DNA from: an uncultured Actinomycetes bacterium
Lineage (GTDB): Bacteria > Actinomycetota > UBA4738 > HRBIN12
NCBI GenBank assembly: GCA_963799625.1
Contig: CAWCXU010000013.1
Coordinates: 475,709-539,708 of the forward strand
Direction: 5' to 3'
Length of the DNA: 64,000 nt
The notes under the pieces are model-generated. The model worked only from the letters and a program-made list of their open reading frames with translations, was not told where the DNA came from and ran no database searches. A program made the translations under genes and the position numbers. This document shows positions 27,466 through 50,595 of the stretch, piece by piece; the stretch's first letter is position 1, and the number at the start of each line of letters is the position of its first letter.

Positions 27466-28149
27466 TCACGACGCGTCGGCAACCCATCGGTACCCAACGC
27501 CCGGCTCGGTGACGATCAACGCCGGGGCCGAGGCGTCGTCGCCGAGCTTGCGCCGGAGCGCGCGGACGTAGGTGCGCAGGTACGTGGTCTCGGTGCCGTA
27601 CCCCTGCCCCCAGACGCGTCGCAGCAGCCACTGGTGGGTGAGCAGCTTGCCCGGGTTCGTCACCAGGACTTCGAGCAGGCCGTACTCGGTCGGCGTCAGG
27701 TGGACCTGCTCCCCGTCGATCGTCACGAGCTGCTTGGCGAGGTCCACCTGAAGCGCCCCGAAGACGAGGAGTGGGGCGTCGGGCTCACCCGAACCCTTGC
27801 GCCGCAGGGCTGCGCGTGAACGGGCGAGGAGCTCTTCCATCCCGAACGGCTTGGTGACGTAGTCGTCGGCGCCGGCGTCGAGCGCGGCGACCTTGTCGCT
27901 CTGCCCCTCGCGGACCGACAGGACGATGATCGGGACCTCGGAGAAGGCGCGCACCCGGGTGATCACCTCGGTGCCGTCCATGTCGGGCAGGCCGAGGTCG
28001 AGCAGGATCAGCTCGGGGTGCTGGCTCGCGGCGGCGACCACGCCCTCGTCGCCGGTCCCCACGGTCTCGACGACGTAGCCGTGCGCCTCCAGGCTCGTGC
28101 GGAGCGCGCGGCGGATCTGCGGCTCGTCGTCGACCACCAGCACCTTCAC
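27466..28149 (-). CDS. OmpR/KdpE-family response regulator (RR1)
   Basis: VKVLVVDDEPQIRRAL...LILLDLGLPDMDG...DAGADDYVTKPF; winged-helix C-terminus (LTPTEYGLLEVL...GVGYRW). GTG start overlaps the HK1 stop (GTGA). Confidence 0.85.
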   Translation of the reverse strand: MKVLVVDDEPQIRRALRTSLEAHGYVVETVGTGDEGVVAAASQHPELILLDLGLPDMDGTEVITRVRAFSEVPIIVLSVREGQSDKVAALDAGADDYVTKPFGMEELLARSRAALRRKGSGEPDAPLLVFGALQVDLAKQLVTIDGEQVHLTPTEYGLLEVLVTNPGKLLTHQWLLRRVWGQGYGTETTYLRTYVRALRRKLGDDASAPALIVTEPGVGYRWVADAS

Positions 28150-29627
28150 GCAGCCTCCTCCTCGATCGGCAGGTCCAGGACCAGGGCGGTCCCGCCGCCG
28201 GCGGTCTCCTCCACCCAGATCCGGCCGCCGTGCGCGGTCACGACGGCCCGCGCGATCGACAGTCCGAGCCCGCTGCCGGGCCGTTCGGGCTCCTCGCGGC
28301 CACGATAGAAGGGTTCGAACACCTTCTCGCGTTGCGCGAGAGGGATGCCCGGGCCTTCGTCGGCGACCCGCACGCGCACGGACGCGCCCTCGCGCGACAG
28401 GTGGATCCGGACGGTCCCGTTCGGCGGCGAGTGGCGCGCGGCGTTCTCCACGAGGTTGGTGAGCACCTGATCGAGCTGCATCGGGTCGGCCGCGATCTCC
28501 GGGAGCTCGTCGGGCACCTGCAGCTCCACCCGCACGCGCTCGAGCTGGGGCCGCATCCGCGCCACCACCGCGCCGGCGACCTCCTCGACGTCGGTCGGCA
28601 CGCGACGCGGGATCAACGCGCCGGCGCGGATCCGGGCGAGATCCAGGATGTTGCCCACCAGCCGGTTCAGGCGATCGGTCTCCTCGAGGATCGTCGTGAG
28701 GAGCTCGCGCTGCTGCGTCGCGTCGTGCACGGTCGAGGCGTCGAGCAGGCTCGTGACGCCGGCCTTGATGGACGCGAGCGGCGTGCGCAGGTCGTGTGTG
28801 ACCGAGGAGAACATCGCCGCGCGCAGCTGGTTGGTCTCGGCGTCGAGCTGGGCGAGCCGCGCGCGCGCGTCGAGGCGGGCACGGTCCAGCGCCACCGCCG
28901 CCTGGCGCGTCGCCGCCTCCAGGAGCTCGCGCTCGCGCCGCGTGAACGAACGCGCGCGCGCGGGCCGCTCGGTCGTCAGCGTCCCCAAGGGGACCGTCGC
29001 GATCACGACCGGCACGATCTCGGTCGGGCCGCCCAGCTCGGCGCCCTCGCGCCGCGCGATCGCGCTCATCTCCTGCCCGTCGAGCACCACTTGGACGCTG
29101 CAGATCGCCAGCCCGAACGGATCCAGCAACAGCGCGACGAACTCGTCGAGCACCCGATCGGGGACGTCGCCGGACAAGAGCTTGCTCGACAGGAGCGCGA
29201 GCAACCGGGCCTCGCGCTCGCGCTCGGTGGCCCGGCGCCGCTCCGCCGCGGCGTTCCCGACCACCAGACCCACCACAGCGGCGATCGCGAGGAACACCAC
29301 CGAGGCGATCACGTCGCGGAGTTGCTCGAACTGGAACCCGTTCGCGGGCTGCTCGATCCACGGCAGGGCCACCGATGACAGCAGCGCCGTCACGATCCCC
29401 GCCCAGATGCCGCCGCTGACCGCCGCGATCGTGACGGCGAGCATGAAGATCGCGACCCCCGCCCCGGGCCCGAGATCCCTGGTCAGGGCCACCAAAACGG
29501 CGCCGCACAGGGCCGCGCCGACCCCGATCGCGAGGGCGCGCGCCGAGATCTGGTCCACCCGCGGTTCCCTGCGATCCATCGCCACGACGGACACGCTACC
29601 GCCTCTATCTGCGCGATCCGGGCGCAT
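28146..29627 (-). CDS. KdpD-type sensor kinase lacking the N-terminal KdpD/Usp domains (DUF4118-like 4-TM + GAF + HisKA + HATPase_c), HK1
   Basis: Four TM helices then ...SSVTHDLRTPLASIKAG (H-box), N-box NLVENAARHSP, and DEGPGIP, GSGLGLSIARAVVTAHGG. Confidence 0.85.
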   Translation of the reverse strand: MRPDRADRGGSVSVVAMDRREPRVDQISARALAIGVGAALCGAVLVALTRDLGPGAGVAIFMLAVTIAAVSGGIWAGIVTALLSSVALPWIEQPANGFQFEQLRDVIASVVFLAIAAVVGLVVGNAAAERRRATEREREARLLALLSSKLLSGDVPDRVLDEFVALLLDPFGLAICSVQVVLDGQEMSAIARREGAELGGPTEIVPVVIATVPLGTLTTERPARARSFTRRERELLEAATRQAAVALDRARLDARARLAQLDAETNQLRAAMFSSVTHDLRTPLASIKAGVTSLLDASTVHDATQQRELLTTILEETDRLNRLVGNILDLARIRAGALIPRRVPTDVEEVAGAVVARMRPQLERVRVELQVPDELPEIAADPMQLDQVLTNLVENAARHSPPNGTVRIHLSREGASVRVRVADEGPGIPLAQREKVFEPFYRGREEPERPGSGLGLSIARAVVTAHGGRIWVEETAGGGTALVLDLPIEEEAA

Positions 29628-29654
29628 CCGGGGCGGGCCGGAGGGGAGAGGTCG

Positions 29655-29703
29655 TTCACGTTTTCTTCACGCGCCCTCGGGCATCCTTCACGCCCCGCTC
29701 ACG
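29655..29703. promoter_or_regulatory. Phased hexamer direct repeats TTCACG (x3) + CTCACG at 29655, 29666, 29687, 29698 (spacings 11/21/11 bp). Candidate OmpR/KdpE-type response-regulator box in the HK1/trkA divergent intergenic region.
   Basis: Read directly: cgTTCACGttttcTTCACGcgccctcgggcatccTTCACGccccgCTCACGct. The helical-turn phasing is typical of winged-helix RR tandem sites. Lies 28-76 bp upstream of the HK1 ORF start. Confidence 0.35.
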
Positions 29704-29917: not shown

Positions 29918-30604
29918 GTGCACACGCGGGTACGCTTCCCGGCCATGCGGGTCCTGATCATGGGATGCGGTCGGGTCGGTTCCGAGCTCTCCCACGCGCT
30001 CGGCGACGCCGGTCACGAGGTCACGGTGATCGACAAACGCGCCGAGGCGTTCGATCGCTATCCCCCCGGCGAGCACGCGCGCACGATCGTCGGTCTCGGG
30101 TTCGACCGCGACGTGCTCGAGGAGGCCGGGATCCGCGAGGCCGATGCGTTCATCGCGGTCTCGAGCGGCGACAACTCCAACATCGTGTCGGCGCGCGTCG
30201 CGCTCGAGCACTACCACGTGCCCAAGGTGATCGCGCGGATCTTCGACCCGCGGCGCGCCGAGATCTACGAGCGGCTCAACATCCCGACGGTCGCGACGAC
30301 CACGTGGGGCGTGAAGCAGTTCCAGCTGATGCTGCTGCACACCGGCAAGGAGGTGCGCGAGAGCCTCGGCGGCGGCGAACTCCTGCGGGTGCGCGTCCCG
30401 GTGCCGAGCCACCTGGTCGGCAAGCCGGTGTCGACGTTGAACGTCGACGGGCACATCCTCGTCGCCGGCGTGTCGCGCGGCGGCAAGGGGTTCATCCCGT
30501 CGATCGACAGCACGCTGCAGGAGGGCGACTTCCTGATCGTCACGATGGGCAAGGACTACATGGACGAACTCGACACATTGCTCGAGCCGACGGAGCACCG
30601 CTGA
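29918..30604 (+). CDS. trkA: TrkA/CeoB-like K+ uptake regulatory protein (RCK/KTN NAD-binding N domain + TrkA_C)
   Basis: MRVLIMGCGRVGSELSHAL (GxGxxG Rossmann) ...C-terminal TrkA_C (LLRVRVPVPSHLVGKPVSTLNVDGHILVAGVSRGG). Stop overlaps the next trkA start (TGATG). Confidence 0.85.
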   Translation: MHTRVRFPAMRVLIMGCGRVGSELSHALGDAGHEVTVIDKRAEAFDRYPPGEHARTIVGLGFDRDVLEEAGIREADAFIAVSSGDNSNIVSARVALEHYHVPKVIARIFDPRRAEIYERLNIPTVATTTWGVKQFQLMLLHTGKEVRESLGGGELLRVRVPVPSHLVGKPVSTLNVDGHILVAGVSRGGKGFIPSIDSTLQEGDFLIVTMGKDYMDELDTLLEPTEHR

Positions 30605-31269
30605 TGCGGGTCGTGGTGACCGGGGGCGGCGCGATCGGACGCCACGTCGCAGGCGACCTCAGCACGCGCGGCCACGACGTCACGCTGATCGAGCAGGACA
30701 AGCAGACCGTCGAGGACCTCCGCGAGGAGATCCCCGAGGTGACGATCATGCTCGGCGACGCGTGCGAGCCGTGGGTGCTCGACGACGCGGAGCTCGCCCG
30801 CGCCGACGTGGTGGTCGCCGCTACCGGCGATGACGAGGACAACCTGGTCACGTCGCTGCTCGCCAAGCAGGAGTTCGCCGTGCCGAGGGTGCTCGCGCGC
30901 GTCAACCACCCGAAGAACGAGTGGCTCTTCACCGATCAGTGGGGTGTCGACACCGCCGTCTCGCCGCCCCACATGCTGACGTCGATGGTGGAGGAGGCCG
31001 TCACGACGGGCGACCTGGTGCAGCTCCTGCGGCTCGAGGGCGGCCAGATCTCGATCGTCGAGATGAAGCTCGCCGCCGACTCGCCGGCCGTCGGCAGGCC
31101 GATCTACGAGCTCCGCCTGCCCAACGACGCCGCGATCGTCGCGATCGTGCGCGACGCGCACGTCGTGATCCCGCAGCCCGAGACCGTGCTCGGCGGCGGC
31201 GACGAGCTGGTGGCGCTCGCCGCGATCGGGACCGAGCAGGCGCTTCGGGCCGCGATCGTCGGCGACTGA
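30604..31269 (+). CDS. trkA: Second TrkA/CeoC-like K+ uptake regulatory protein
   Basis: MRVVVTGGGAIGRHVAGDL...TrkA_C (ISIVEMKLAADSPAVGRPIYELRLPNDAAIVAIVRD). Confidence 0.85.
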   Translation: MRVVVTGGGAIGRHVAGDLSTRGHDVTLIEQDKQTVEDLREEIPEVTIMLGDACEPWVLDDAELARADVVVAATGDDEDNLVTSLLAKQEFAVPRVLARVNHPKNEWLFTDQWGVDTAVSPPHMLTSMVEEAVTTGDLVQLLRLEGGQISIVEMKLAADSPAVGRPIYELRLPNDAAIVAIVRDAHVVIPQPETVLGGGDELVALAAIGTEQALRAAIVGD

Positions 31270-31282
31270 GGCGGTCCGCCGC

Positions 31283-31975
31283 TCAGCCGCTCGGCTCGAC
31301 CTGCCAGCGATACCCGATCCGTGACTCGGTCACGATCGCGCGTGGGTGCCGCGGGTCGGGTTCGATCTTGCGCCGGAGCTGACTGACGAAGACCCGGAGC
31401 GCCTCGACGTCGGGGGCGCCGTCGGCGTCCCACACCTCGGCCAGCAGCCAGTCGTGCGTGCGGAGCACGCCCGGCGCGGTGGCGAGCGCCTCCAGCAGGC
31501 GCCACTCGGTCGGCGTCAGGTGGACCTGGTCCTCGCCGCGCCGCACGGATCGCGCGCCCAGGTCGATCCGGATGTCGTCGACCTCGAACCGGGTGCCGCT
31601 CGGCTCGGGCGCCGCCCGCCGCAGGAGCGCCCGTACCCGGGCCAGGAGCTCGGCAGCGCCGAACGGCTTCGTCAGGTAGTCGTCGGCGCCGAGGTCGAGC
31701 GCGGCGACCTTGTCCTGCTCGGCGTCGCGCACCGACAGCACGAGGATCGGCACCGAGCTGAACCGCCGGATCTCCCGGCAGGCGGTGAGCCCGTCGACGT
31801 GCGGCAGGTTGAGATCGAGCACGACCAGGTCGGGCTCGCGGTCGCGGACCGCGCCGACCGCGGCGCGCCCGTCGGTCGCCGTCGCGACGCGGAAGTCGCG
31901 GGCGAGCAGCGTCCGCTCCACCGCGCGGAGGATCTGGGGCTCGTCGTCGACGACGAGGATCAACGGGTCGCTCAT
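31283..31975 (-). CDS. OmpR/KdpE-family response regulator (RR2)
   Basis: MSDPLILVVDDEPQILRAV...LVVLDLNLPHVDG...winged helix LTPTEWRLLEAL...IGYRW. ATG overlaps the HK2 stop (ATGA). Confidence 0.85.
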   Translation of the reverse strand: MSDPLILVVDDEPQILRAVERTLLARDFRVATATDGRAAVGAVRDREPDLVVLDLNLPHVDGLTACREIRRFSSVPILVLSVRDAEQDKVAALDLGADDYLTKPFGAAELLARVRALLRRAAPEPSGTRFEVDDIRIDLGARSVRRGEDQVHLTPTEWRLLEALATAPGVLRTHDWLLAEVWDADGAPDVEALRVFVSQLRRKIEPDPRHPRAIVTESRIGYRWQVEPSG

Positions 31976-33360
31976 GCCGCCGGGAGCCGGAACCCCATCG
32001 TCGTTCCCCCGCCCGGGGTGTCGGTCGCCCAGATCTCGCCGCCCATCGCGGTGACGAAGCCCTTGCAGATCGCGAGACCGAGCCCGGCACTCAGGCGCGG
32101 CGACCCTTCCTGCAGCTTGTAGAACGGTGTGAAGAGCAGCTGCTGGTCGCCGAACGCGAGGCCGGGCCCGTGGTCGACCACCTGCACGACGACCACGCCG
32201 TCCGCCCGCTCCGCGGCGAGCTCGATCCGCCGGTCGGCGGCGCCCCGCACGGCGCGCGCCGCGTTCTCCACGAGGTTGGTGACGACCCGCTCCACGAACA
32301 GCTCGTCGCCCCGGACGCGGACGGCGTCGTCGGCGACCCGCACGTCGATCTCGACGCCCGGCCAGCGCTCGCGCACGCCGTCGACCGCCGGACCGACGAG
32401 ATCGTCCAGATCGACGAGGTCGGCGTGGGCCACGAGCGTGCCCGACTCGATCCGGGACATGTCGAGCAGGTTCGTGATCAGCTGCGCGAGCCGCCCGGCC
32501 GACGCGCGAACGTCCTCGAGCACGACCCGGGCGCTCTCGGGGTCGAACGTCTCGCGGTCGAGGATGTCGGTGACCGACGCGGTGATGGCGGCGATCGGGC
32601 TCTTCAGCTCGTGCGAGGCGGCCGCCAGCAACGATCGCCGCATGTCCTCGGTCCGCTTGTACAGCTCGGCCTCGCGGAGCTCCTGCTCCAGCCGCTCGGC
32701 CTGCACCACCAGCGCGACCTCGTCGGCGAACGTGCGGACGACACGGGTCTCGGCGGCCGTCAACGCCGGGCGATCCCCGACGAAGACCAACGAACCGACC
32801 CGCGCCGGGCCGACCCGCAGCGGGAACGCGGTCGCCGAGGAGGCGGCCGGATCGTCCTCGTCGCGGACCGAGGCCAGGACGAACCCGAGGCGTTCGGCCG
32901 CGCGACCGAGCGCCGGGGTAAGGCCCTCCGCCCGCTCGGACACCAGCACGTGGCTCAGATCGAACAGCAGCCGGACCTCCGCCTCGCGGTCCTCGGCCGC
33001 GGTCGCGCGCTCGTGCGCGACGCCCACCAGCCACGAGATCAACAGCGACATCGCGATGAACGCGAAGAACGCGACGACGTACTCGGTCCGCTCGAGGTCG
33101 AAGGTGCCGTAGGGGGGGAGGAACCCGACGTTGTACAGCGCCGACCCGACGATCGCGGCGACGATGCCGGGGACCACCCCACCGAGCCACGACGCCACCA
33201 CCACCGGCACGAGGAACGCGAACGCCGTCAGGGTGTGCGACAGCTGCACCCGGAAGGGCTCCATCACGGCGGCGATCGCGAGGGGGCCGAGCGTGGCGAC
33301 GAGGTAGGCGGCGCCGAGCAGCCACGAGGGCCTGCGGACGCCCAGCACACGCGTCGACAC
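31972..33360 (-). CDS. KdpD-type transmitter-only sensor kinase HK2 (4-TM + GAF + HisKA + HATPase_c)
   Basis: TM block ...NVGFLPPYGTFDLERTEYVVAFFAFIAMSLLIS (DUF4118-like FLPPY motif), H-box AAASHELKSPIAAITAS, HATPase motifs. GTG start at 33360 preferred. An alternative ATG at 33465 would overlap the divergent permease gene. Confidence 0.8.
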   Translation of the reverse strand: MSTRVLGVRRPSWLLGAAYLVATLGPLAIAAVMEPFRVQLSHTLTAFAFLVPVVVASWLGGVVPGIVAAIVGSALYNVGFLPPYGTFDLERTEYVVAFFAFIAMSLLISWLVGVAHERATAAEDREAEVRLLFDLSHVLVSERAEGLTPALGRAAERLGFVLASVRDEDDPAASSATAFPLRVGPARVGSLVFVGDRPALTAAETRVVRTFADEVALVVQAERLEQELREAELYKRTEDMRRSLLAAASHELKSPIAAITASVTDILDRETFDPESARVVLEDVRASAGRLAQLITNLLDMSRIESGTLVAHADLVDLDDLVGPAVDGVRERWPGVEIDVRVADDAVRVRGDELFVERVVTNLVENAARAVRGAADRRIELAAERADGVVVVQVVDHGPGLAFGDQQLLFTPFYKLQEGSPRLSAGLGLAICKGFVTAMGGEIWATDTPGGGTTMGFRLPAA

Positions 33361-33398
33361 GGCCGCGGTCCGATCCACGCTCGCAACGATAGTCGCCC

Positions 33399-33418
33399 TT
33401 ACGGAACCCTTATCCCGC
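33399..33418. promoter_or_regulatory. 20-mer TTACGGAACCCTTATCCCGC: two half-sites (TTACGG / TTATCC) 11 bp apart, in the HK2 / kimA-like-2 divergent intergenic region. 17/20 identical to a motif upstream of kdpF.
   Basis: Direct sequence comparison with 38151..38170 (TTACGGATCCCGTATGCCGC). Confidence 0.35.
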
Positions 33419-33437
33419 GCTTCTAGCGTGGACCGTG

Positions 33438-35891
33438 ATGCAGACCGACGACGCACCTCCCGCAACGTCCGCGGCGCCCGAGGCCGCGAGCCCTCCCTCC
33501 CGGCCGGCCGCGCGCCCGCCCTTGCCCCGGAGCTCGAGCTACGGGGTCAAGCGGGCGTTCCTCGGACCGGCGCTCCCGACCGCTCACCTGGTGCACGAGC
33601 GGCTCGGCAAGATCGCCGCGCTCGCGATCTTCAGCTCGGACGCGCTCTCCTCGGTCGCCTACGCCACCGAGGAGATGCTGAAGACCCTGGTGATCGCCGG
33701 GGTCGGCGTGCTCGCGTTCTCGCTGATCGTGCCGTTGTCGGGGGCGATCGTGGCCGTCCTCGCGATCCTCGTCTTCAGCTATCGGCAGACGATCAAGGCC
33801 TACCCGTCGGCGGGCGGCGCCTACATCGTCACGAAGGACAACTTCGGACTGATCCCAGCCCAGGTGGCCGGCGTCGCGCTGCTGACGGATTACGTGCTGA
33901 CCGTCGCGGTGTCGGTGTCCGCCGGCGTCGCGGCGATCATCGCGCTCGTGCCGGTGACCGCGCCGTTCCGCGTCGAGATGGCCGTCGCGTCGATCGCCCT
34001 GATCGCCTACGGCAACCTCCGGGGCGTCCGGGAGTCCGGGAAGATCTTCGCGGCGCCGACCTACGTGTTCATCGGGTGCATCATGTCGCTGCTCATCGTC
34101 GGGGTCGTGCGCGCGGCGACCGGGTCGCTCGCCGTGCCGCCGCCGGTCACGACAGGCGGCGCGCTGTCGGCCTTCGCGCTCGTCCCCGCGTTCGTCGCGT
34201 TGCACGCGCTGGCATCGGGCAGCACGGCGATGACGGGCGTGGAGGCGATCTCGAACGGCGTGCCGGCCTTCAAGCCCGTCGAATGGAAGCACGCGAGGCA
34301 GACGCTCGTCGCGCTCGGGCTGCTTCTGGCCACGATGTTCATGGGGATCTCGTGGCTCGCCGCGAAGCTCCAGGTCGCGCCGGACTTCACCGGGCGCTCG
34401 ACGGTGGTCGCCGACATCGGCAAGGCGGTCTACGGCACGAGCCCGCTCGGGCACGCCGCCTTCGCCCTGCTGCAGATCGCGACGGCGCTGATCCTCGTGC
34501 TCGCGGCCAACACGGCCTACGCCGACTTCCCACGTCTGGCGAACTTCCACGCCGGGGACGACTTCTTGCCGCGGCAGTTCACGACGCGCGGGCACCGGCT
34601 CGTGTTCTCGAACGGGATCTTGGCGCTGTCGGCGGCCGCGATGCTGCTGGTCGTCCTGTTCCGCGCCGACGTGACGCGGCTGATCCCGTTCTACGCGATC
34701 GGGGTGTTCACCTCGTTCACGCTGTCGCAGGCGGGGATGGCCAAGCGGCACCTCAGGCTTCGCGAGGAAGGGTGGCGGGTCGGCCTCGCGATCAACGGGG
34801 TCGGCGCCGTCGCGACGGGGGTCGTGCTCGCGATCGTGGCCCGGACGAAGTTCGCCGAGGGCGCCTGGGTGATCTTGATCCTCGTGCCGGTGATGGTTGT
34901 CCTGCTGGTGCGGATGAACCACCAGTACGAGCGCGAGAAGAGGGAGCTCGAACGGGACCTGAAGGCGTTCACGCCGCCGACCAGCCGGCCCCCGATCACG
35001 ATCTTGCTCGTCGAGGACCTCGACCCCAAGACCGTGCACGCGTTGCAGTACGCCCGGACGATCCGCTCCGAGCGGACGATCGCCGTGCACGTCGAGGAGG
35101 ACCGCGCGCGCACGCAGGCGCTCGAGGCCGCGTGGCAGACCGCCGGACTCGACGCGATCCCGCTGCGGATCGTGCGCGGCCGCGGCGACGAGGCGGCGCG
35201 CCTCGCCGGCTTCCTCGCGGCCTACGAGCGTGAGGACCGGGACGCGATCGTGATCGTGCCCGTCCCTCACGAACGGACGTTGCGCGAGCACGTCGCCGAC
35301 CGGCGCGCAGGCGCGCGGCTGCACCGCGCGCTCCTGTCCTACGGTCATGTGCGGGTCACCATGGTCCGCGACCACCCCGACGGCGTGCACCCCTTGCAGC
35401 GTGACGAGGACGGGCGACCGGTCGTGCGCCTCACCGCCCGGCAGACGCACGACGTCGTCGTGTTGGTCGACAAGCTCGACCGAGCGACGCTGCAGGCCGT
35501 CGCGTACGCGCTCGGGCTCGGCACGCGGTCGGTCCGCGCGGTCCACGCCGCCGTCGACCCCGATCGGGCAACCCGCCTCGCGGAGCGGTGGTCGGAGCTG
35601 CGTGCACCCGTCCCTCTCGACGTGATCGAGTGCTGGGACCGGGACGTGCCCCGCGCGGTCGAGCGCTACGTCGTCGGCATGGCGTCGGAGGGCACCGAGG
35701 TGACGGTCGTCATGCCCCGGCGCGACTACCCGCGCCTGCGCCAGCGGCTCCTGCACGACCGCACGAGCCGGAAGATCGAGCGGGCGCTCGGGCGCTACGC
35801 GCACATCGACGTCGCGGACATCCCGTACTACGTCCGGGGCGTGCCCGAGCCGATCGACGCGCGGGCCGAGGACGTCCTCGAGCCCGTCTGA
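33438..35891 (+). CDS. KimA-family K+ transporter homologue 2 (818 aa) with extended C-terminal cytoplasmic domain
   Basis: Same signature blocks as the paralogue (SSDALSSVAYATEEML, SYRQTIKAYPSAGGAYIVTKDNFG, MTGVEAISNGVPAFKP, LAANTAYADFPRLA, GVFTSFTLSQAGM) plus C-terminal ITILLVEDLDPKTVHALQYARTIRSERTIAVHVEED. Stop abuts the stop of the convergent kdpE-like gene. Confidence 0.75.
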   Translation: MQTDDAPPATSAAPEAASPPSRPAARPPLPRSSSYGVKRAFLGPALPTAHLVHERLGKIAALAIFSSDALSSVAYATEEMLKTLVIAGVGVLAFSLIVPLSGAIVAVLAILVFSYRQTIKAYPSAGGAYIVTKDNFGLIPAQVAGVALLTDYVLTVAVSVSAGVAAIIALVPVTAPFRVEMAVASIALIAYGNLRGVRESGKIFAAPTYVFIGCIMSLLIVGVVRAATGSLAVPPPVTTGGALSAFALVPAFVALHALASGSTAMTGVEAISNGVPAFKPVEWKHARQTLVALGLLLATMFMGISWLAAKLQVAPDFTGRSTVVADIGKAVYGTSPLGHAAFALLQIATALILVLAANTAYADFPRLANFHAGDDFLPRQFTTRGHRLVFSNGILALSAAAMLLVVLFRADVTRLIPFYAIGVFTSFTLSQAGMAKRHLRLREEGWRVGLAINGVGAVATGVVLAIVARTKFAEGAWVILILVPVMVVLLVRMNHQYEREKRELERDLKAFTPPTSRPPITILLVEDLDPKTVHALQYARTIRSERTIAVHVEEDRARTQALEAAWQTAGLDAIPLRIVRGRGDEAARLAGFLAAYEREDRDAIVIVPVPHERTLREHVADRRAGARLHRALLSYGHVRVTMVRDHPDGVHPLQRDEDGRPVVRLTARQTHDVVVLVDKLDRATLQAVAYALGLGTRSVRAVHAAVDPDRATRLAERWSELRAPVPLDVIECWDRDVPRAVERYVVGMASEGTEVTVVMPRRDYPRLRQRLLHDRTSRKIERALGRYAHIDVADIPYYVRGVPEPIDARAEDVLEPV

Positions 35892-36591
35892 TCACGCGTC
35901 GCCGGCCGGATCCTCGCTCCAGCGGTACCCGATCCCCGGCTCGGTGACGATCGCCCGCGGGCGCCGCGGATCGGGCTCGATCTTGCGCCGGAGCTGGCTG
36001 ACGAACACGCGAAGCACCTCGACGTCCTCGCCGTACGGGTCCCCCCAAACGCGTTCGAGCAGCCACCGGTGGGTGAGCAGCTTCCCGGGGTGGGCCGTGA
36101 GCGCCTCCAGCAGCGCCCACTCCGTCTTGGTGAGATGCACGTCGCCGTCACCCCGCGTGACGCGGTGCGCCTGCATGTCGATCGACACGCCGTCGAGCCG
36201 GTACCGCGCCGTCCCGTCGGCGGGGGCCCCCTCGCCCCGGCGCAGCAGCGCGCGGACGCGCGCGAGCAGCTCCCCCGTGCCGAACGGCTTCGTCAGGTAG
36301 TCGTCGGCCCCGAGGTCCAGCGCGGCGATCTTGTCGGGCTCCTCGTCGCGCACCGACAGCACGATGATCGGCACGCTGCTCCACGCGCGGATCCGCCGGC
36401 AGAACTCGAGCCCGTCGAGCACCGGCATGTTGAGATCGAGGACCACGAGATCAGGTGGCGACGCCGCCGCGAGGTCGAGTGCCAACAGCGCCGTCGGGGG
36501 CGAGCTCGACCGCATAGTCTCGCGCGACGAGCGATCGTTCGATCGCCTCGCGGATCTGCGGCTCGTCGTCGACCACGAGGATCTTCGTCAC
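35892..36591 (-). pseudogene. kdpE: KdpE-like OmpR-family response regulator (RR3) with a frameshift near 36503. Possible pseudogene or assembly indel.
   Basis: N-terminus VTKILVVDDEPQIREAIERSLVARDYAVELAPDG in one frame. The remainder (ALLALDLAAASPPDLVVLDLNMP...winged helix...GIGYRW) is in the frame of ORF 35892..36515(-). A 2-nt loss in a gcgc context fits. GTG start overlaps the kdpD3 stop (GTGA). Confidence 0.7.
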
Positions 36592-38087
36592 GAGGCCTCC
36601 TGCAACGAGAAGGCGAAGGTCGCGCCCCCGCCAGGGGTGTCCTCGAGCCAGATCTCCCCGCCCATCAGATCGACGAACCCCCGCGCGATCGCGAGCCCGA
36701 GGCCGGAGCCGAGTTTCGTCGTCCGCTCGTCGAGCCGGGCGAAGGGCAGGAACAGCTGGGTGCGCTCCCGCGTGGTGAGTCCCGCCCCGTGGTCGACGAC
36801 CTTGACCGCCACCTGGGCGCGCCGTTGCCCGTGGTCGGTCGGACCGATCTCGATCTCCACCGACGGGCTGCCGGCGGCCACGGCCGACCGCGCCGCGTTG
36901 TCCAGGAGGTTCGACACCACCCGGGGGAAGAAGACCGGGTCGGCGACCGCGACCTCGTGCCCGTCGTCGATCGCCATGGCGATGTGCACGTCGGGCCAGC
37001 GCAGCGCCGCCGCGTCGACCTCGGCCGTGACGGTCTCCGCGAGATCGACGTGCTCGAGGTGCGCCTGCACGACGCCGGCCTCGATCCGCGACAGGTCCAG
37101 GAGGTTCGCGACGAGCGCGTCGAGCCGGTCGGCCTCGCTGTCGACCACGTGCAGGACGGCCGCACGCTCCGCCGTCGAGCGCTCCACCTCGGGATCGAGC
37201 AGATCGGTGACCGACGCCTTGATCGCCGCCAGGGGGCTCCGGAGGTCGTGCGAGACCGCGGCGAGCATCGTTCGGCGCGCCGTCTCGGTCTGCCGGAGGA
37301 TCTCGGCGTCGGTCGCGGTGCGCAGCAGCCGGTCGCGCTCGAGCACCAGCGCGAGCTGGTCACAGACCGCACGCAGCACCCGCACCTCCGCGGGGTCCAG
37401 CGCGGGCCGCGACCCGGTGAGCACGATCAGGCCCAGCGTTCGGTTGCCGACCGACAACGGCAGCCGTTGCGGCGCGCGTCCCGGGTCGGCCGGGTTCCAC
37501 GACGGGCTGATCGACCCGGCCGGAGCGCCGACGACCACCCGCTCGTCGAGCCCACCCTCGGCGCCGCTCACGAACAGGGCGCCCGCGTCGAATCCGAACC
37601 GCGTGACGACGTCGCCGAGCAGCGCGCCGTACATCTCCTCTCCCGGACCCCGCACCACGAGGTCGCGGCTCAGCTCCTGCAGCGTCTGCAGCTCGCGCTC
37701 CTTCGCCTCGGCGACCTCCGCCCGCTCCACCGCACGGGAGTAGAGCGAGGAGATCAGCACCGACAACGCGAGGAACACGACGAGCGCGACCACGTGCTCG
37801 CCCCGTGCGATCACGAACGAGTCGTACGGCGGCAGGAAGAAGAAGTTGAACGTCAGGAACGACACGACCGCCGCGAGCAACCCCGGTCCCAGCCGCCCGA
37901 CGATCGCCGCGGCGACCACGACGACCAGGAAGGTGAAACCGATCGTGAGCGGCTGCAAGGTGTCGCGGAACGGGAGGAACACGAGCACGACAGCCGCCGG
38001 ACCGGCGACCGCGATGAGGTACCCGATCGCGCGAAGACGTCCTCTCGGCGCCGCGCGGAGCAGCGCGAGGGTGCGTGCGGTGCGCAT
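36588..38087 (-). CDS. kdpD: KdpD-type transmitter-only sensor kinase HK3, divergent from kdpFABC
   Basis: FLTFNFFFLPPYDSFVIARGEHVVALVVFLALSV (DUF4118 signature), GAF-like middle, H-box AAVSHDLRSPLAAIKAS, HATPase (LLDNAARSAV, DHGAGL, GSGLGLAIARGFVDLMGG). Confidence 0.85.
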   Translation of the reverse strand: MRTARTLALLRAAPRGRLRAIGYLIAVAGPAAVVLVFLPFRDTLQPLTIGFTFLVVVVAAAIVGRLGPGLLAAVVSFLTFNFFFLPPYDSFVIARGEHVVALVVFLALSVLISSLYSRAVERAEVAEAKERELQTLQELSRDLVVRGPGEEMYGALLGDVVTRFGFDAGALFVSGAEGGLDERVVVGAPAGSISPSWNPADPGRAPQRLPLSVGNRTLGLIVLTGSRPALDPAEVRVLRAVCDQLALVLERDRLLRTATDAEILRQTETARRTMLAAVSHDLRSPLAAIKASVTDLLDPEVERSTAERAAVLHVVDSEADRLDALVANLLDLSRIEAGVVQAHLEHVDLAETVTAEVDAAALRWPDVHIAMAIDDGHEVAVADPVFFPRVVSNLLDNAARSAVAAGSPSVEIEIGPTDHGQRRAQVAVKVVDHGAGLTTRERTQLFLPFARLDERTTKLGSGLGLAIARGFVDLMGGEIWLEDTPGGGATFAFSLQEAS

Positions 38088-38150: not shown

Positions 38151-38170
38151 TTACGGATCCCGTATGCCGC
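38151..38170. promoter_or_regulatory. 20-mer TTACGGATCCCGTATGCCGC in the kdpD3 / kdpF divergent intergenic region. Conserved with 33399..33418. A further TCACGG hexamer lies about 25 bp downstream.
   Basis: Read directly; 17/20 identity to the HK2-permease2 intergenic motif. Confidence 0.35.
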
Positions 38171-38234
38171 ACGCGTCGTTCCTCACGGTTGCCTGATGTC
38201 CGCTGACTACGGTCGGGGCCAGGAGGTGAGGACC

Positions 38235-38318
38235 GTGTGGGATCTCTGGGTCGGCGTCATCACCGCGGTGTTCTTCGTGGTGGCCTTCGCCCTCGTCCGC
38301 TGGTTCGACGCGATATGA
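38235..38318 (+). CDS. Small hydrophobic leader peptide (27 aa, single TM) preceding kdpF/kdpA
   Basis: AGGAGG then GTG..., VWDLWVGVITAVFFVVAFALVRWFDAI*. Stop overlaps the next small ORF (ATGA). Confidence 0.4.
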   Translation: MWDLWVGVITAVFFVVAFALVRWFDAI

Positions 38319-38403
38319 ACATCGCCGATGCGCTCGAGCTCGCGCTCGCGCTCGCGCTGCTCGTCTATCTCGTGTACGTGTTGATCCGCCCGGAGCGATT
38401 CTG
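38314..38403 (+). CDS. kdpF: KdpF-like K+-transporting ATPase small subunit (29 aa)
   Basis: MNIADALELALALALLVYLVYVLIRPERF*. The LVYLVYVLI core resembles KdpF (…LGYLVYALI…). Its TGA overlaps the kdpA ATG. Confidence 0.55.
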
Positions 38404-40073
38404 ATGGGCACGATCGTCGTCTACACGCTCCTGTTGATCGTGCTGACGCCGCCGCTGGGCGCCTACCTGTACCGCGTCTACACGAGCGAGCGCACCGGCC
38501 GGATCGAGGGCGTCTTCTATCGGGTGCTCGGCGTGAACCCCGACGCCGAGCAATCGTGGCGCCGGTACGCGACGGCGGTCCTGTGGTTCAGCGTGATCAG
38601 CATGGTGTTCGTCTACCTCGTGCTGCGGTGGCAACAGCATCTACCGCTGAACCCCGAAGGCTTCGCGGGCGTGAACCCGTACCTGTCGTTCAACACCGCC
38701 GCGAGCTTCATGACCAACACGAACTGGCAGTCCTACGGCGGCGAGACGACGATGAGCTACCTCTCCCAGATGCTCGCGCTGACGTTCCAGAACTTCGTGT
38801 CGGCCGCGGTGGGCATCGCGGTCGTGATCGCGATGATCCGCGGGTTCACGCGCGCCGGCACCGACAACGTCGGGAACTTCTGGCGCGACCTCGTGCGCGG
38901 CGTCGTCTACGTCCTGTTGCCGATGTCCGTGCTGGTCGCGATCGTCCTCATGAGCCAGGGTGTCGTGCAGACCCTCAGCCCCTCCGCGTCGGTCACCGGG
39001 ATCCAGGGGTTCGCGCAGGTGATCGCGCGCGGTCCGGTCGCGAGCCAGATCGCGATCAAGCAGCTCGGCACGAACGGCGGCGGGTTCTTCAACGTGAACT
39101 CGGCGCACCCGTTCGAGAACGCGACGCCGATCTCGAACTTCGTCGAGGCGTTCGCGATCCTGTGGATCGCCGCGGCGCTGACCTACACGTTCGGCAAGAT
39201 GGTCGGCAACGTCCGCCAGGGCTGGGTGCTGTTCGGCGTGATGTGGATCCTGCTGGTCGCCGGTCTGGCGCTCACCGTCCCCGGCGAGCGGACCGCCACC
39301 CCCGCGATGCAAGCGGCGGGCGTCGCCGGCAGACCGCGCCCAACCTCGAGGGCAAGGAGGTGCGCTTCGGACCCGACGCGTCGTCGCTGTGGTCGGTCGC
39401 CACCACCGACGCCTCGAACGGGAGCGTCAACTCGATGCTCGACTCGTACCAGCCGCTCGGCGGGCTCGCGCCGATGTTCAACATCGCGATCGGCGAGGTG
39501 ATCTTCGGCGGGGTCGGCAGCGGGCTGTACGGGATGATCTTCTACGTCGTGATCGCCGTGTTCATCGGCGGGCTGATGGTCGGCCGCACCCCCGAGTACC
39601 TCGGCAAGAAGATCGGCGCGCGCCAGGTCAAGATCGTCGTGATCGCCGTGCTCGTGCCGTTCCTGGTGGCGCTCGCGTTCACGGCGTTGGCGGTGGTGAC
39701 ACCGTCGGGCCTGGCCGGGCCGCTCAACACCGGCCCTCACGGGTTCAGCGAGATCTTCTACGCGTACCTGTCGCAGGGGAACAACAACGGTTCGGCGTTC
39801 GCGGGGCTCACCGCGAGCTCGCCGTACTACACGATCACCGGCGGCATCGCGATGCTCGTCGCCCGCTTCGTGCCGCTGATCGCGGCGCTCGCGCTCGGCG
39901 CGAGCGTGGGCAGGGAGCGCACCGTGCCGTTCACGGCGGGGACGCTGCGGACCGACACGGGACTGTTCGCCGGCCTGCTGACCGGCGTGATCGTGATCAT
40001 CGGCGCCTTGACGTTCCTGCCCGGGCTCGCCCTCGGTCCGATCGTCGAGCACCTGCAGAAGGGGCTGAGCTGA
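38404..40073 (+). pseudogene. kdpA: KdpA (K+-transporting ATPase subunit A) with a -1 frameshift near 39330. Possible pseudogene or assembly indel.
   Basis: N-terminal 300 aa (MGTIVVYTLLLIVLTPPLGAYLYRVY...) are in ORF 38404..39501. The remainder (NLEGKEVRFGPDASSLWSVATTDASNGSVNSMLDSYQPLGG...EVIFGGVGSGLYGM...) is in the frame of ORF 38556..40073. The junction …AGVAG|QTAPNLEGKE aligns with KdpA if one c is restored in gccggc(c)agacc. Confidence 0.8.
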
Positions 40074-40074
40074 G

Positions 40075-42142
40075 ATGTCGGTGACCGCCCCGCCGCAGAC
40101 AGCGCCCACCACGCAGACGACGATCCGCTCGCGTCCCTTGTTCGACGGACCGATCGTGCGTCAGGCGATCGTCGACAGCTTCACGAAGCTGAACCCGCGC
40201 ACGCTCCTGCGCAACCCGGTGATCTTCGTCGTCGAGGTCGTGTCCATGGTGGTCACGATCCGGATCGTCGCCGACGCCGTCAACGGCGGTGCGGTCGCGT
40301 TCGACACCGCGATCGGACTCGGGCTGTGGTTCACGGTGCTGTTCGCGAACTTCGCCGAGGCGATGGCGGAAGGGCGCGGCAAGGCGCAGGCCGAGACCCT
40401 GCGGCGCACCCGCGCCGACCTCGTGGCCCGGCGGCTCACCGCCGACGGCACCGAGGAGACCGTGCAGGCGTCCGACCTGCGCGCCGGCGACGTCGTGATG
40501 GTGTCGGCCGGCGAGCTGATCCCGGGCGACGGCGAGATCGTCGAAGGGATCGCGTCGGTCGACGAGTCGGCGATCACCGGCGAGTCGGCCCCCGTGATCC
40601 GGGAGTCCGGCGGCGACCGCTCGGCCGTGACCGGCGGCACCAAGGTGCTCTCGGACTGGATCAAGGTCCGGATCACGGCCGAGCCCGGCGAGGGCTTCAT
40701 CGACCGGATGATCCGGCTCGTCGAAGGCGCCGAGCGCCAGAAGACGCCGAACGAGATCGCGCTGTCGCTCCTGCTCGTGAAGTTCACGATCATCTTCCTG
40801 ATGGTGATCGTGGCCCTCCAGCCGTTCGCCATCTACGCGGGCAACCGCGTGAGCGACGCCGTGCTGATCGCCCTGTTCGTGTGCCTGATCCCGACCACGA
40901 TCGGGGGCCTGCTGTCCGCGATCGGGATCGCCGGGATGGACCGGCTCGTCCAGCGCAACGTGCTCGCGATGAGCGGCCGCGCGGTCGAGGCCGCCGGCGA
41001 CGTGTCCGCGCTGCTGCTCGACAAGACCGGCACGATCACCCTCGGGAACCGGCAGGCGGTGGCGTTCCTCCCGGCGCCCGGCGTCGACGAGCGGCGAGCT
41101 CGCCGAGGTCGCGCAGATGGCCTCGCTCGCCGACGAGACCCCCGAGGGTCGCTCGATCGTCGTGCTCGCGAAGGAGCGCTTCAACCTGCGCGAGCACGAC
41201 TTCATGGAGGCCCACGCCGAGTTCGTCCCGTTCACCGCGCAGACGCGGATGAGCGGCGTGAACCTCAACGGCAGCGAGATCCGCAAGGGCGCCGTCGACG
41301 CGATCCGCGGCTGGTCCGGGCGGGACCTGCCGCCCGAGCTCGACGAGGCGGTCGAGCGCATCTCGCGCGCGGGCGGCACACCGCTCGCGGTCGCGAAGGA
41401 CCACGTCCCGATGGGGGTCGTCGAGCTCAAGGACATCATCAAGGACGGACTGGTCGAGCGGTTCGACCAGCTGCGGCGGATGGGGATCCGCACGGTGATG
41501 ATCACCGGCGACAACCCGCTGACCGCGGCCGCGATCGCGCAGGAGTCCGGTGTCGACGATTTCCTCGCCGAGGCGACGCCCGAGACCAAGATGGCGCTGA
41601 TCCGCAAGGAGCAGGAGGGCGGCGTGCTCGTCGCGATGACCGGCGACGGCACGAACGACGCCCCCGCGCTCGCGCAGGCGGACGTCGGGGTCGCGATGAA
41701 CACCGGCACGTCGGCGGCGAAGGAGGCCGGCAACATGGTCGACCTCGACTCGAACCCCACGAAGCTGATGGACATCGTCGAGATCGGCAAGCAGCTGCTG
41801 ATCACCCGTGGCGCGCTCACAACCTTCTCGATCGCGAACGACGTCGCGAAGTACTTCGCGATCATCCCGGCGATGTTCGTGACGACGTATCCGGCCCTCG
41901 ATCGGTTGAACGTGATGCACCTGACCTCGCCGCAGTCCGCGATCTTGTCGGCGGTGATCTTCAACGCGCTGATCATCGTGGCGCTCGTGCCGCTCGCGCT
42001 CCGCGGCGTGCGCTACCGGCCGGTCGGCGCCGAGGGTCTGCTGCGCCGCAACCTGCTGATCTACGGTCTCGGCGGGATCATCGTGCCCTTCATCGGCATC
42101 AAGCTGATCGACATGTTCCTCGGGCTGGTGCATTTCCCGTGA
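40075..42142 (+). pseudogene. kdpB: KdpB (P-type ATPase catalytic subunit) with a frameshift near 41092. Possible pseudogene or assembly indel.
   Basis: N-terminus through [24 protein letters not shown] is in the frame of ORF 40075... The C-terminus ([29 protein letters not shown]...[22 protein letters not shown]...[25 protein letters not shown]...) is in ORF 41117..42142. The 4-nt stretch cggc between the frames indicates a +1/-2 indel. Confidence 0.8.
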
Positions 42143-42726
42143 TCCGCACGATCGTCCGCGCGCTGCTCGCCACGCTCGTGCTCGCGGCCCTGACGGGGAT
42201 CGCGTACCCGCTGGTGATGACCGGGATCGGCCAGGTTGCGTTCGCCCACGACGTGAACGGCTCGCTCGTCGACGTCAACGGTCAACCGGTCGGCAGCTCG
42301 CTCATCGGACAGACCTGGAACGGCCCGGAGTGGTTCTACGGGCGACCGTCGGCGGTCGGCGACGACGCGTCGACGTCGTCGGGCTCGAACCTCGGGCCTC
42401 GGTCCCAACAGCTCGCCGACGACATCGAGACGCAGGCGCGCCAGATCCTCAAGATCGAGTCGCCCTACACACCCGGCCTCACGACGGCCAGCATCCCGGT
42501 CGACCTGGTGACCTCCTCGGGCAGCGGCCTCGACCCCGATATCTCGGTCGCCGCCGCCCGGTTCCAAGCGCCGCGGATCGCGGCCGTTCGCGGGCTCCCG
42601 CTCGACCAGGTGCTGAGCCTGATCGACGCGCACACCGCCCACGAGACCCTCGGGTTCCTCGGAGAGCCGCGGGTGAACGTCCTGGAGCTCAACCTCGCGC
42701 TGCAGGGGGTGGCGCCACGAGCGTGA
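42139..42726 (+). CDS. kdpC: KdpC (K+-transporting ATPase subunit C)
   Basis: [35 protein letters not shown]...[25 protein letters not shown] (KdpC signature). GTG overlaps the kdpB stop (GTGA). Confidence 0.8.
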
Positions 42727-43038
42727 CCACCGCCCTGCAGCGCACCGTCCTCGTGATGGGACGCCACGTCACGGAGCCACCACGGCTCTACCCGGGCGAC
42801 GTCGCCGGGTCGATGGCCGTCGTCGTGATCACGGTCGGGTGGCCGGTCACGTCGGCCCAGTCGATGGCGGTCGAACAAGCGCTCGAACTCGCGCGCGAGC
42901 GTCGCGTCGCGTTCGACGCGTTCCTGGTCGGCTCGATCACCGAGGGACTCGAGGTGGTCGACACCCGTGACCGGGTGCTGTTCGCCGGCGACCGACGCGA
43001 GGGGAAACGGATCGTGCGCGGCCTCGGCCCGCGCGGGA

Positions 43039-44226
43039 TCACCGCGCGCGCTGCGCGATGACGTGGATGTCGACGTTCGCGGCCTGCCTGATCAGCTCGG
43101 TGACGAACGATCCCCGCAGGATCTCCTTCCACCGCGAGCGGCGTGATTCCCCGACCACGAGCTGCGTGACGTACTGGGTGTAGGCGACGTTCAGCACGCC
43201 CGCGACCGGGTCCTCGTCGTCGATCACGAGGAGCTCTCCGCCGAGGTCGGCCACCAGTTGCTTGAGCTCGACGAGCCACGCGGTCGCCTCGGGCTCGTGC
43301 CGCTCGCGCGCGTGGACCACGAGGAAGTCGCCTCGGGCCCGCTGGGCGATCCGCGCGCCGCGCCGCACGAGGTCGTCGGCGGAGTCCGGCTCGCCGACGC
43401 AGACCAGGACGCGTTCGCGGGTCTCGGGCGTGCGCCCCTTCGACCATCGCGACAGGAGCGTCTCGTCGACCTGGTTCGCGACCCGCATCAGCGCCAGTTC
43501 GCGGAGCGCCGTCAGGTTGTCGGTCGTGAAGTAGCGCTGCAGCGCGAGCTCCGCTTTCGCGGGATCGGGGTAGACGTTGCCGTGCAGCATCCGACGTCGC
43601 AGGGCGTGCGGCGACATGTCGACGAGCTCGATCTGGTCGGCCAGCTCGACCACCCAATCGGGAACCGTCTCGCGCTGCTGCACCCCGGTCACGTCGGCGA
43701 CGACGTCGTTCAGGCTCTCGAGATGCTGGATGTTGACCGTGGTGATGACCTCGATCCGTGCCGCCAGCAGGTCGATCACGTCCTCCCAGCGCTTGCCGCG
43801 CCGGGCGCCCGGGACGTTCGTATGCGCGAGCTCGTCGACGAGCGCGATCTCGGGCTGGCGCTGTACCACCGCGTCGGTGTCCATCTCGTCGAAGATGGCG
43901 CCGCGGTACTCGATCGTGCGCTCGGCGACGGTCTCGAGGCCTTGGAGCATCTCGAGCGTGCGTGGCCGGCCGTAGGTCTCGACGCACGCGACGACGACCC
44001 GGCTTCCGCGCTCGGCGCGACGACGCCCCTCCGACAGCATCGCGTAGGTCTTGCCGACACCGGGCGCGGCGCCGAGGTAGATCCGAAGCGGCGCCGACTT
44101 GGCCGCGCGCGCCTCGCTCCGGTTCCACTGCGGCGGCGCCGACGGCTCCGCGACGACCGTATGCCCGATCAGGGCCTCGACCGACTCCACTCCCCGCTCT
44201 GGCCCGCGCTCGGCGCTCGTCGCCAT
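43039..44226 (-). CDS. Stand-alone KdpD N-terminal sensor domain protein (KdpD_N P-loop domain + Usp domain), no TM or transmitter domains
   Basis: RIYLGAAPGVGKTYAMLSEGRRRAERG (KdpD Walker A) ...VITTVNIQHLESLNDVV..., then Usp-like ERVLVCVGEPDSADDLVRRGARIAQ...LLVIDDEDPVAGVLNVAYTQYVTQLVVG. Convergent with kdpC. The overlapping ORF 42788..44128(-) is an R/G-rich artefact. Confidence 0.85.
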   Translation of the reverse strand: MATSAERGPERGVESVEALIGHTVVAEPSAPPQWNRSEARAAKSAPLRIYLGAAPGVGKTYAMLSEGRRRAERGSRVVVACVETYGRPRTLEMLQGLETVAERTIEYRGAIFDEMDTDAVVQRQPEIALVDELAHTNVPGARRGKRWEDVIDLLAARIEVITTVNIQHLESLNDVVADVTGVQQRETVPDWVVELADQIELVDMSPHALRRRMLHGNVYPDPAKAELALQRYFTTDNLTALRELALMRVANQVDETLLSRWSKGRTPETRERVLVCVGEPDSADDLVRRGARIAQRARGDFLVVHARERHEPEATAWLVELKQLVADLGGELLVIDDEDPVAGVLNVAYTQYVTQLVVGESRRSRWKEILRGSFVTELIRQAANVDIHVIAQRAR

Positions 44227-44615: not shown

Positions 44616-44618
44616 CGA

Positions 44619-50589: not shown

Positions 50590-50595
50590 CTCGGA

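Follow-up and report, generated by a model that had tools for sequence, protein, structure and literature searches.

A probable potassium-homeostasis gene cluster in an uncultured soil actinobacterium, with KdpD encoded as separate genes and its kinase half multiplied

We analyzed a 64-kb stretch of DNA with a GC content of ~70% from an uncultured soil actinobacterium (contig CAWCXU010000013.1, positions 475,709 to 539,708; "the window" below means this whole stretch), and conclude that it probably contains a potassium-homeostasis gene cluster in which the sensor kinase KdpD is encoded as separate genes and its kinase half is multiplied. The genes for the N-terminal and C-terminal halves of KdpD are separated by kdpFABC, and the C-terminal half is present three times, each time with a response regulator (RR). 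The genes from 25 to 47 kb are, in order, KimA1, RR1-HK1 (HK, histidine kinase), two TrkA-type genes, RR2-HK2, KimA2, RR3-HK3, the kdp operon and the gene for a stand-alone KdpD_N/Usp protein, beyond which come an OB-fold gene and an H+-pyrophosphatase gene. HK3/RR3 thus adjoin kdpFABC, HK2/RR2 adjoin KimA2, and HK1/RR1 adjoin the trkA genes and KimA1. The reading we favor, and consider somewhat better than an even bet, is that the cluster encodes one serine-kinase brake on KdpB together with three parallel KdpDE-like transcriptional circuits, each adjoining a K+ importer of its own.

According to this reading, the stand-alone KdpD_N/Usp protein would be an atypical serine kinase acting on the serine of the KdpB TGES motif, and phosphorylation of KdpB would shut down KdpFABC at the post-translational level under K+ sufficiency. 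HK3 and RR3 would be the equivalents of the KdpD C-half and KdpE and would turn on kdp transcription. The other two pairs, HK2/RR2 and HK1/RR1, would be paralogous sensors with a presumed K+ input through their transmembrane (TM) and GAF parts, and would control the adjoining KimA-type and TrkA-type uptake genes. The post-translational branch has a published precedent in the work of Silberberg et al. (2024 Nat Commun; PMC11018627), who report that the N-domain of KdpD acts as an atypical serine kinase on S162 of KdpB and inhibits the pump. The isolated N-domain (residues 1-230) suffices for this phosphorylation, as does a natural KdpD/Usp-only protein, so a KdpD_N protein needs no histidine-kinase partner. 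An earlier reading of the window, made from the sequence only, had proposed that the N-protein potentially serves the three kinases. There is no need to assume such a service, since the isolated N-domain acts on KdpB S162 by itself and the residues needed for this reaction are present here, by alignment, in both KdpD_N/Usp and KdpB; the ITGES stretch of KdpB with the S162 equivalent is identical to that of E. coli KdpB (6hra; E161/S162).

The gene calls behind these assignments were made by third-position GC bias and then by translation, because of the high GC content. As the sequence-only reading had proposed, the KdpD_N P-loop and Usp domains are encoded once, in a protein of 395 amino acids (aa) with an intact Walker A: a scan of the 64-kb window found no second KdpD_N, and both Walker A GAAPGVGKTYAML (GAAPGVGKT, G-X5-GKT) and Walker B VDELAH are identical to those in the KdpD N-domain structure 2r8r. 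The Usp domain scores 32.5 bits in Pfam (cut-off 24), and there is no TM, GAF or DHpCA part on the polypeptide, whose open reading frame (ORF) ends at 43039, convergent with the kdp operon. Its top NCBIfam match is NF038185 (KdpD_non_kinase) at 368.9 bits, under the 550-bit cut-off, and it matches the NF007793 KdpD equivalog at 290.6 bits (cut-off 1123) over the N-half of the model only. All of the best 120 database homologues (64-92% identity) likewise have KdpD_N without a kinase half, mostly with Usp; their lengths are mostly ~370-410 aa, a few being shorter fragments or proteins of 555-572 aa, and most come from Actinomycetota metagenome-assembled genomes (MAGs). Because this architecture holds in 120/120, the stand-alone KdpD_N is a real form and not a truncation. 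We also rejected the idea that it is a frameshift artefact of a full-length kdpD, given that the gene is on the strand opposite to kdpFABC, which separates it from HK3, and that the N-domain-only form is conserved in these homologues. The closest proteins among GTDB species representatives, in the loci L001-L003 (67% identity), stand alone as well, and each of the three MAGs has a single entry among the best 80 of 594 KdpD_N-encoding loci, a weak indication at most as to a full-length kdpD elsewhere in the genome; the comparison covered the window and 10-kb flanks of the loci in relatives. Most remaining loci encode full-length KdpD of ~850 aa at ~50% identity (Streptomyces, Kitasatospora, Mycobacterium and others).

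The three kinases are, as first described, DUF4118 proteins without the N-terminal domains: Pfam finds neither PF02702 nor Usp in HK1, HK2 or HK3. Each has an H-box, a complete HATPase_c domain, DUF4118 and GAF-like parts, the GAF matches being weak and under the Pfam threshold, so that all three look like autonomous, complete TM/GAF/DHp/CA sensors. The proposed K+-sensing sites of KdpD have been placed in the TM/GAF region (PMC11018627), and because that region is kept, the label "transmitter-only" given to these kinases does not suit them. Nor is there space for a lost N-domain upstream of them, since only ~56 to 320 nt of intergenic sequence separate them from the divergent genes on that side. 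The top NCBIfam family for all three is PRK10490 KdpD, matched by its C-terminal part at 164-197 bits, with the runner-up family at 116-158 bits; against the NF007793 equivalog (cut-off 1123) HK1 scores 196.7, HK2 163.6 and HK3 166.3 bits, over the C-half only. Together with a rough neighbor-joining (NJ) tree, these matches place the kinases closest to the KdpD C-half and bear out the earlier view that KdpD is split here. Public gene calls start HK1 at 29594, giving 482 aa; the protein is identical in five sibling assemblies and belongs to a populous family of ~480-aa kinases. For HK2, the start first placed at 33360 gives way to a likelier GTG at 33378, which matches the ATG of the relative L082.

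The importers beside HK1 and HK2 are predicted to be K+ transporters by homology to KimA. KimA1 aligns with KimA of known structure (6s3k) at E = 2.9e-124, the best stretch covering residues 13-477 (the transmembrane core) and a second stretch also matching; KimA2 is 43% identical to KimA1. KimA1 follows RR1 in the same direction after a gap of 40 nt. We compared the order of these genes in sibling assemblies, which are of the same species, come from one ENA metagenome set and share 97.9-99.6% nucleotide identity with the window, and in more distant relatives (L082 at 89% identity, L081 at 81%, L085 at 74%, L001-L003 at 67% and L086 at 67%). The full order, with kdp facing HK3-RR3, KimA2 facing HK2-RR2, and the two TrkA genes facing HK1-RR1-KimA1, is kept in 4/5 sibling assemblies, and it is partly kept in L082, L081, L085 and L001-L003 (67-89% identity). 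Orthologues of HK3 occupy the same position in L001, L002, L081, L082 and L085. The HK1-RR1-KimA1 order also recurs in L002 and in the sibling assemblies; L002 is rearranged, its HK1-type pair having a kimA-trkA operon on one side and another kimA on the other, and the pairing with KimA/TrkA genes survives.

KdpD_N keeps different company. In the relatives examined it is always linked to kdp or to a kdp-adjacent HK/RR pair: it lies tail-to-tail with the kdp operon in L001-L003, L081-L085 and L087, follows kdpC in the same direction in L005 and L053, and in L086 (7996-11218) forms an HK-RR-KdpD_N operon opposite kdpFABC, a permutation of the KdpD parts (C-half, KdpE, N-half). None of the loci examined links it to a gene of the HK1 or HK2 type, which makes it rather unlikely that a single KdpD_N/Usp protein docks in trans on three truncated kinases and tunes their kinase/phosphatase balance, even though the window does pair three KdpD C-half-like kinases lacking the N-domain with just one KdpD_N. 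Gene order lends such sharing no support, as KdpD_N is tied to kdp only and each HK/RR pair to a different K+ uptake system. The operon of L086 can be read as favoring a shared module. Because Streptomyces encodes a full-length KdpD next to its trkA/kimA-like genes, an N-domain may also have been lost in the ancestry of HK1 and HK2, and its role could now be supplied in trans. In older work on E. coli, moreover, a separately expressed N-domain is said to complement an N-terminally truncated KdpD. Three Acidimicrobiia loci (L010, L050 and L053) nevertheless encode short DUF4118 kinases alongside full-length KdpD, and L053, from an Acidimicrobiaceae MAG, has a short kinase with its regulator, a full-length KdpD and, after kdpC, a stand-alone KdpD_N in addition. 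These combinations indicate that the short kinases are independent of a one-to-one split partner and that the N- and C-halves of KdpD vary in copy number independently of each other among Actinomycetota. The published biochemical role of the N-domain, which calls for no histidine kinase (PMC11018627), likewise argues against sharing.

The intergenic regions next to the kinases contain operator-like elements. The blocks of the kdp promoter are conserved across six orthologues and comprise TTACGGAnCCCnTA, another TyACGG that follows it at 32 nt, and a hexamer resembling a -10 element. The 15-mer of this promoter recurs in the 56 nt that separate HK2 from kimA2. RR2 and RR3 probably share the operator TTACGGAnCCCnTAT, at the kimA2 and kdp promoters. 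This sharing agrees with the recognition-helix stretch LRVFVSQLRRKIEPDPR, which is identical in RR2 and RR3 and differs in RR1. RR1 probably uses a different operator made of 11-bp-phased TTCACG repeats, and the same arrangement of hexamers, at 0/11/32/43, occurs upstream of the kimA-trkA operon in L002.

Several observations weigh against the proposed brake and parallel circuits. The tryptophan that stacks on adenine in E. coli KdpD (W39) is a tyrosine in the 395-aa protein. The S. aureus-type c-di-AMP motif of Usp domains, SXS-X20-FTAXY (PMC4686210), is absent from its Usp region, which reads ...GEPDSADDLVRRGARIAQRARGDFLVVHA... and fits the E. coli-type RXXXR-X8-WXAVY instead (RRGAR-X8-FLVVH). 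The 15-mer TTACGGANCCCNTAT occurs in the 64-kb window at the kdp promoter and at 33399 only, with up to 2 mismatches allowed, a count that is no independent test, as these two sites themselves served to define the pattern; TTCACG-N5-TTCACG shows no significant window-wide enrichment, with 8 matches vs 4.8 expected, and the support for both operators is their conservation in relatives only. In the NJ tree, which has a single outgroup and is thus indicative only, HK2 and HK3 group together and, with the Acidimicrobiia short kinases, adjoin the clade of full-length KdpD C-halves, and HK1 with its orthologues branches just outside this grouping. More generally, the activities and the regulator-target assignments, as distinct from the domain content, motifs, gene order and conservation of that order seen directly in the loci, are drawn from KdpD work in E. 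coli and Deinococcus and from gene order. Finally, Streptomyces and Kitasatospora encode full-length KdpD-KdpE beside OB-fold, two TrkA and KimA-like genes, with kdpFABC within 10 kb or not; it is not within that distance in several loci (L012, L019, L026 and others), so the N-domain may do more than phosphorylate KdpB.

These Streptomyces and Kitasatospora loci raise the prospect of KdpDE, N-domain included, regulating or acting on K+ systems besides Kdp, and they hint at targets of the N-domain other than KdpB. For the window, they lend some support to a reading in which KdpD_N/Usp, besides acting on KdpB, is a hub that works in trans on the three kinases or phosphorylates the KimA/TrkA-type transporters; one signal, sensed through a nucleotide or through Usp, would then coordinate every K+ uptake route of the cell. 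We regard such a hub as distinctly unlikely. Because the OB-fold, two TrkA and KimA-like surroundings are shared with Streptomyces and Kitasatospora, the K+ neighborhood is an old actinobacterial theme, of which this lineage is a variant with KdpD split and the kinase/regulator part present three times.

The position of HK1 in the tree and its identity of just 32-34% to HK2 and HK3 are also what one would expect if HK1 and HK2 were generic DUF4118 kinases sensing an input other than K+, their place beside K+ genes being incidental and the split KdpD consisting of HK3 and KdpD_N only. Pairwise identities overall are 32-45% among the kinases, with HK2 and HK3 at 45%, and 50-65% among the regulators. 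The kinase scores of 164-197 bits fall far below the KdpD equivalog cut-off given above, and the KdpE family scoring (NF007820, cut-off 325), which took in RR1 and RR2 and left out the repaired RR3, finds RR2 nearly tied at 197.0 bits for KdpE, hardly above the 192.9 bits for MtrA. The same scoring nevertheless makes RR1, the partner of the most divergent kinase, clearly KdpE, at 242.6 bits vs 192.7 for the next family, albeit under the cut-off; KdpD is the top kinase family for all three kinases; the pairing with KimA and TrkA genes is conserved at 67-99% identity and survives the rearrangement in L002; and operator-like repeats are conserved in the shared intergenic regions. On this evidence a generic, non-K+ role for HK1 and HK2 is unlikely, and we retain the reading of three K+-linked circuits and one brake on KdpB.

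In kdpA, kdpB and RR3, frame changes together with mapping of the proteins of relatives reveal frameshifts that had gone unnoticed. RR3 has one extra base at 36481, and its Pfam receiver match begins only at profile position 29. The base is absent from L082, L087, L088, L090 and L092; L091 instead lacks a base at 36487, six positions on. Without the extra base RR3 is a protein of 232 aa with the receiver DD...D...K intact. In kdpA there are extra bases at 39327 and 39331, both absent in the siblings L088 and L092, which encode an intact KdpA of 555 aa, and kdpB has an extra G at 41093 that is absent from L081, L082 and L087. With three frame disruptions in ~5 kb, one might suppose that the Kdp branch is decaying and that true pseudogenes of kdpA, kdpB and RR3 leave an orphan KdpD_N and two working paralogous systems. 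Similar single-base indels, however, also break nhaA (48222) and a CaCA exchanger gene (51133), where the Pfam matches on the two sides of the frame change cover adjoining parts of the profile, and at all of these sites (RR3, kdpA, kdpB, nhaA and CaCA) the extra bases are missing from the overlapping sibling assemblies (98-99.6% identity). Each of those assemblies has its own, different single-base indels elsewhere and keeps KdpA (555 aa) and RR3 (232 aa) intact, and in L082 RR3, kdpA and kdpB are all intact. Third-position GC stays at ~0.95 after each shift, and full-length proteins return when the extra bases are removed. We therefore rejected pseudogenization as the explanation, decay of the Kdp branch being highly improbable. 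Since the indels are assembly-specific single bases, the frameshifts are most likely long-read consensus errors and not gene decay, and the window as a whole looks like an unpolished long-read consensus. A HisKA_3 kinase gene at 5147-7214 may also be split, at ~6030.

Two small ORFs flank the kdp genes (Table 1). The earlier description of the KdpD_N gene as convergent with kdpC holds insofar as it lies tail-to-tail with the kdp operon, but its immediate convergent partner is a 112-aa ORF, whose start overlaps the kdpC stop and which shares its final 23 nt with the 3' end of the oppositely oriented KdpD_N gene. This ORF has relatives in 38 database protein clusters (64-93% identity), all hypothetical, and no match in Pfam or NCBIfam. 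Its AlphaFold2 model (pLDDT 90) is a small Rossmann-like alpha/beta fold for which a PDB fold search returned no match under E = 1e-3. A role as a UspC-like partner was considered and dropped, as no Usp structure comes before rank 41, where one scores E = 0.08. The ORF could encode an accessory or regulatory protein of Kdp that is specific to this lineage. At the other end of the operon, a hydrophobic ORF of 27 aa, called as a 40-aa gene in the sibling assemblies, may be a second small Kdp subunit.

Table 1. Genes and operator-like elements of the putative K+ cluster, in window coordinates
Feature	Coordinates	Strand	Evidence and remarks
KimA-like K+ transporter 1 (KimA1), 778 aa	25089..27425	-	PDB 6s3k KimA
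RR1, KdpE-like regulator	27466..28149	-	Pfam; NCBIfam KdpE 242.6 bits
HK1, KdpD C-half-type kinase	28146..29627	-	DUF4118 residues 36-136, sub-threshold GAF, HisKA, HATPase_c
Four TTCACG-type hexamers, putative RR1 operator	29655..29703	+	Offsets 0, 11, 32 and 43 nt; between HK1 and trkA
Two tandem TrkA-type genes (TrkA_N + TrkA_C)	29945-30604, 30601-31269	+	Pfam; 219 and 221 aa in sibling assemblies
RR2, OmpR-family regulator	31283..31975	-	Pfam, NCBIfam
HK2, KdpD C-half-type kinase, 468 aa from GTG 33378	31972..33378	-	DUF4118 54-159 (numbered from the Pfam scan of 31972-33465), HisKA, HATPase_c
15-mer TTACGGAACCCTTAT, same as that of the kdp promoter	33399..33413	+	In the 56-nt HK2-kimA2 gap; conserved in L082
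KimA-like K+ transporter 2 (KimA2), APC superfamily, ~817 aa	33438..35891	+	Pfam AA_permease_2; L082 orthologue maps from 33438
RR3, KdpE-like OmpR-family regulator, frameshifted	35892..36591	-	Pfam
HK3, KdpD C-half-type kinase	36588..38087	-	DUF4118 23-127, HisKA, HATPase_c; divergent from kdpFABC
Putative kdp promoter/operator	38151..38213	+	TTACGGATCCCGTAT at 38151-38165; TCACGG half-site at 38183-38188, 32 nt downstream; -10-like TACGGT at 38208-38213
Small hydrophobic ORF, 27 aa, GTG after AGGAGG	38235..38318	+	Overlaps kdpF start; conserved in L081, L082, L085
kdpF, 29 aa, ...YLVYVLIRPERF	38315..38404	+	Sequence; 29-aa PF09604 gene in the same place in L081, L085, L088
kdpA, frameshifted	38404..40073	+	555 aa once two extra bases are removed
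kdpB, frameshifted	40075..42142	+	688 aa once the extra base is removed; TGES motif intact
kdpC	42139..42726	+	Pfam KdpC E = 1.2e-66; L085 KdpC maps from 42139
Conserved 112-aa ORF	42723..43061	+	Directly after kdpC; called in L081-L085
KdpD_N + Usp protein, 395 aa	43039..44226	-	Pfam PF02702 E = 1.6e-86, plus Usp

Outside the cluster, the theme of ion homeostasis extends into the flank at 44256-52996, which encodes the OB-fold protein, the H+-pyrophosphatase, NhaA, a LytR-family protein and two CaCA exchangers; the order of this flank recurs in L081, L085 and L087. A fourth, less related pair of a HisKA kinase and an OmpR-type regulator lies on the minus strand at 60271-62104 and is ~35% identical to HK3/RR1, and a tRNA-Thr(CGT) gene lies on the minus strand at 858-930.

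If one brake and three circuits is the correct interpretation, the cluster is a natural dissection of KdpD, with the post-translational brake and the transcriptional switch on separate genes and with sister kinases wired to KimA- and TrkA-type uptake systems. It would then offer a convenient system for studying the role of the KdpD N-domain untethered from the kinase, and for asking whether KdpE-like regulators control KimA-type transporters in Actinobacteria. The regulation of these transporters there appears to be unstudied; a 2023 review on Streptomyces lists KimA-like genes and KdpDE without functional or regulation data. The apparent sharing of an operator by RR2 and RR3 would also make the cluster suitable for examining insulation versus cross-talk among paralogous K+-sensing two-component systems.

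The likeness of KimA1 to KimA, the K+/H+ symporter of B. subtilis (6s3k), lies in the transmembrane core; the B. subtilis protein has 607 aa as against 778 and ~817 aa here, where the C-terminal part is longer. The homologues in the window are adjoined by a two-component system and have no c-di-AMP riboswitch upstream: a search for the ydaO/kimA type upstream of kdp, kimA and trkA found none, the only hit at the Rfam gathering threshold being the tRNA-Thr.

The KdpD_N + Usp-only architecture is that of the short KdpD/Usp protein of Deinococcus geothermalis and of NF038185, a family that NCBI curates as "KdpD-like non-kinase potassium sensor". The window protein differs in scoring under the family cut-off and in being accompanied by KdpE-like regulators and kinases; short KdpD versions without a histidine kinase are mostly found in species without KdpE (PMC11018627). 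In addition, the short Deinococcus KdpD/Usp is stimulated by c-di-AMP (PMC11018627), whereas the Usp domain in the window does not have the S. aureus c-di-AMP motif. Relative to full-length KdpD/KdpE, as in E. coli and the loci L004-L080 of Streptomyces and Mycobacterium, the window locus lacks none of the domains, the KdpD_N part of the actinobacterial proteins is ~50% identical to that of the window, and the neighborhood is the same in Streptomyces and Kitasatospora. The difference is that the halves are on separate genes on either side of kdpFABC and that the C-half and regulator occur three times.

Another close counterpart is the split KdpD described by Silberberg et al. (PMC11018627). 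Their survey of 5495 species found that the KdpD activities are on separate polypeptides in some, the commonest two-polypeptide combination being KdpD/Usp with a TM/GAF/DHpCA kinase. With the split already published in this form, and an N-only family curated by NCBI, the arrangement is less unusual than the sequence-only reading had suggested. The published systems and the window have in common the two-polypeptide architecture, intact Walker A (G-X5-GKT) and Walker B motifs and the serine of the KdpB TGES motif, as well as a kinase half and KdpE-like regulator adjoining kdpFABC (HK3/RR3 here). The serine-kinase activity is known there from experiment; for the window protein it is a prediction. 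Particular to the window are the N-gene placed tail-to-tail with kdp, the lineage-specific 112-aa ORF between kdpC and that gene, and two further kinase/regulator pairs without an N-domain, beside KimA- and TrkA-type genes. The architecture is thus an extension of known KdpD biology and not a departure from it.

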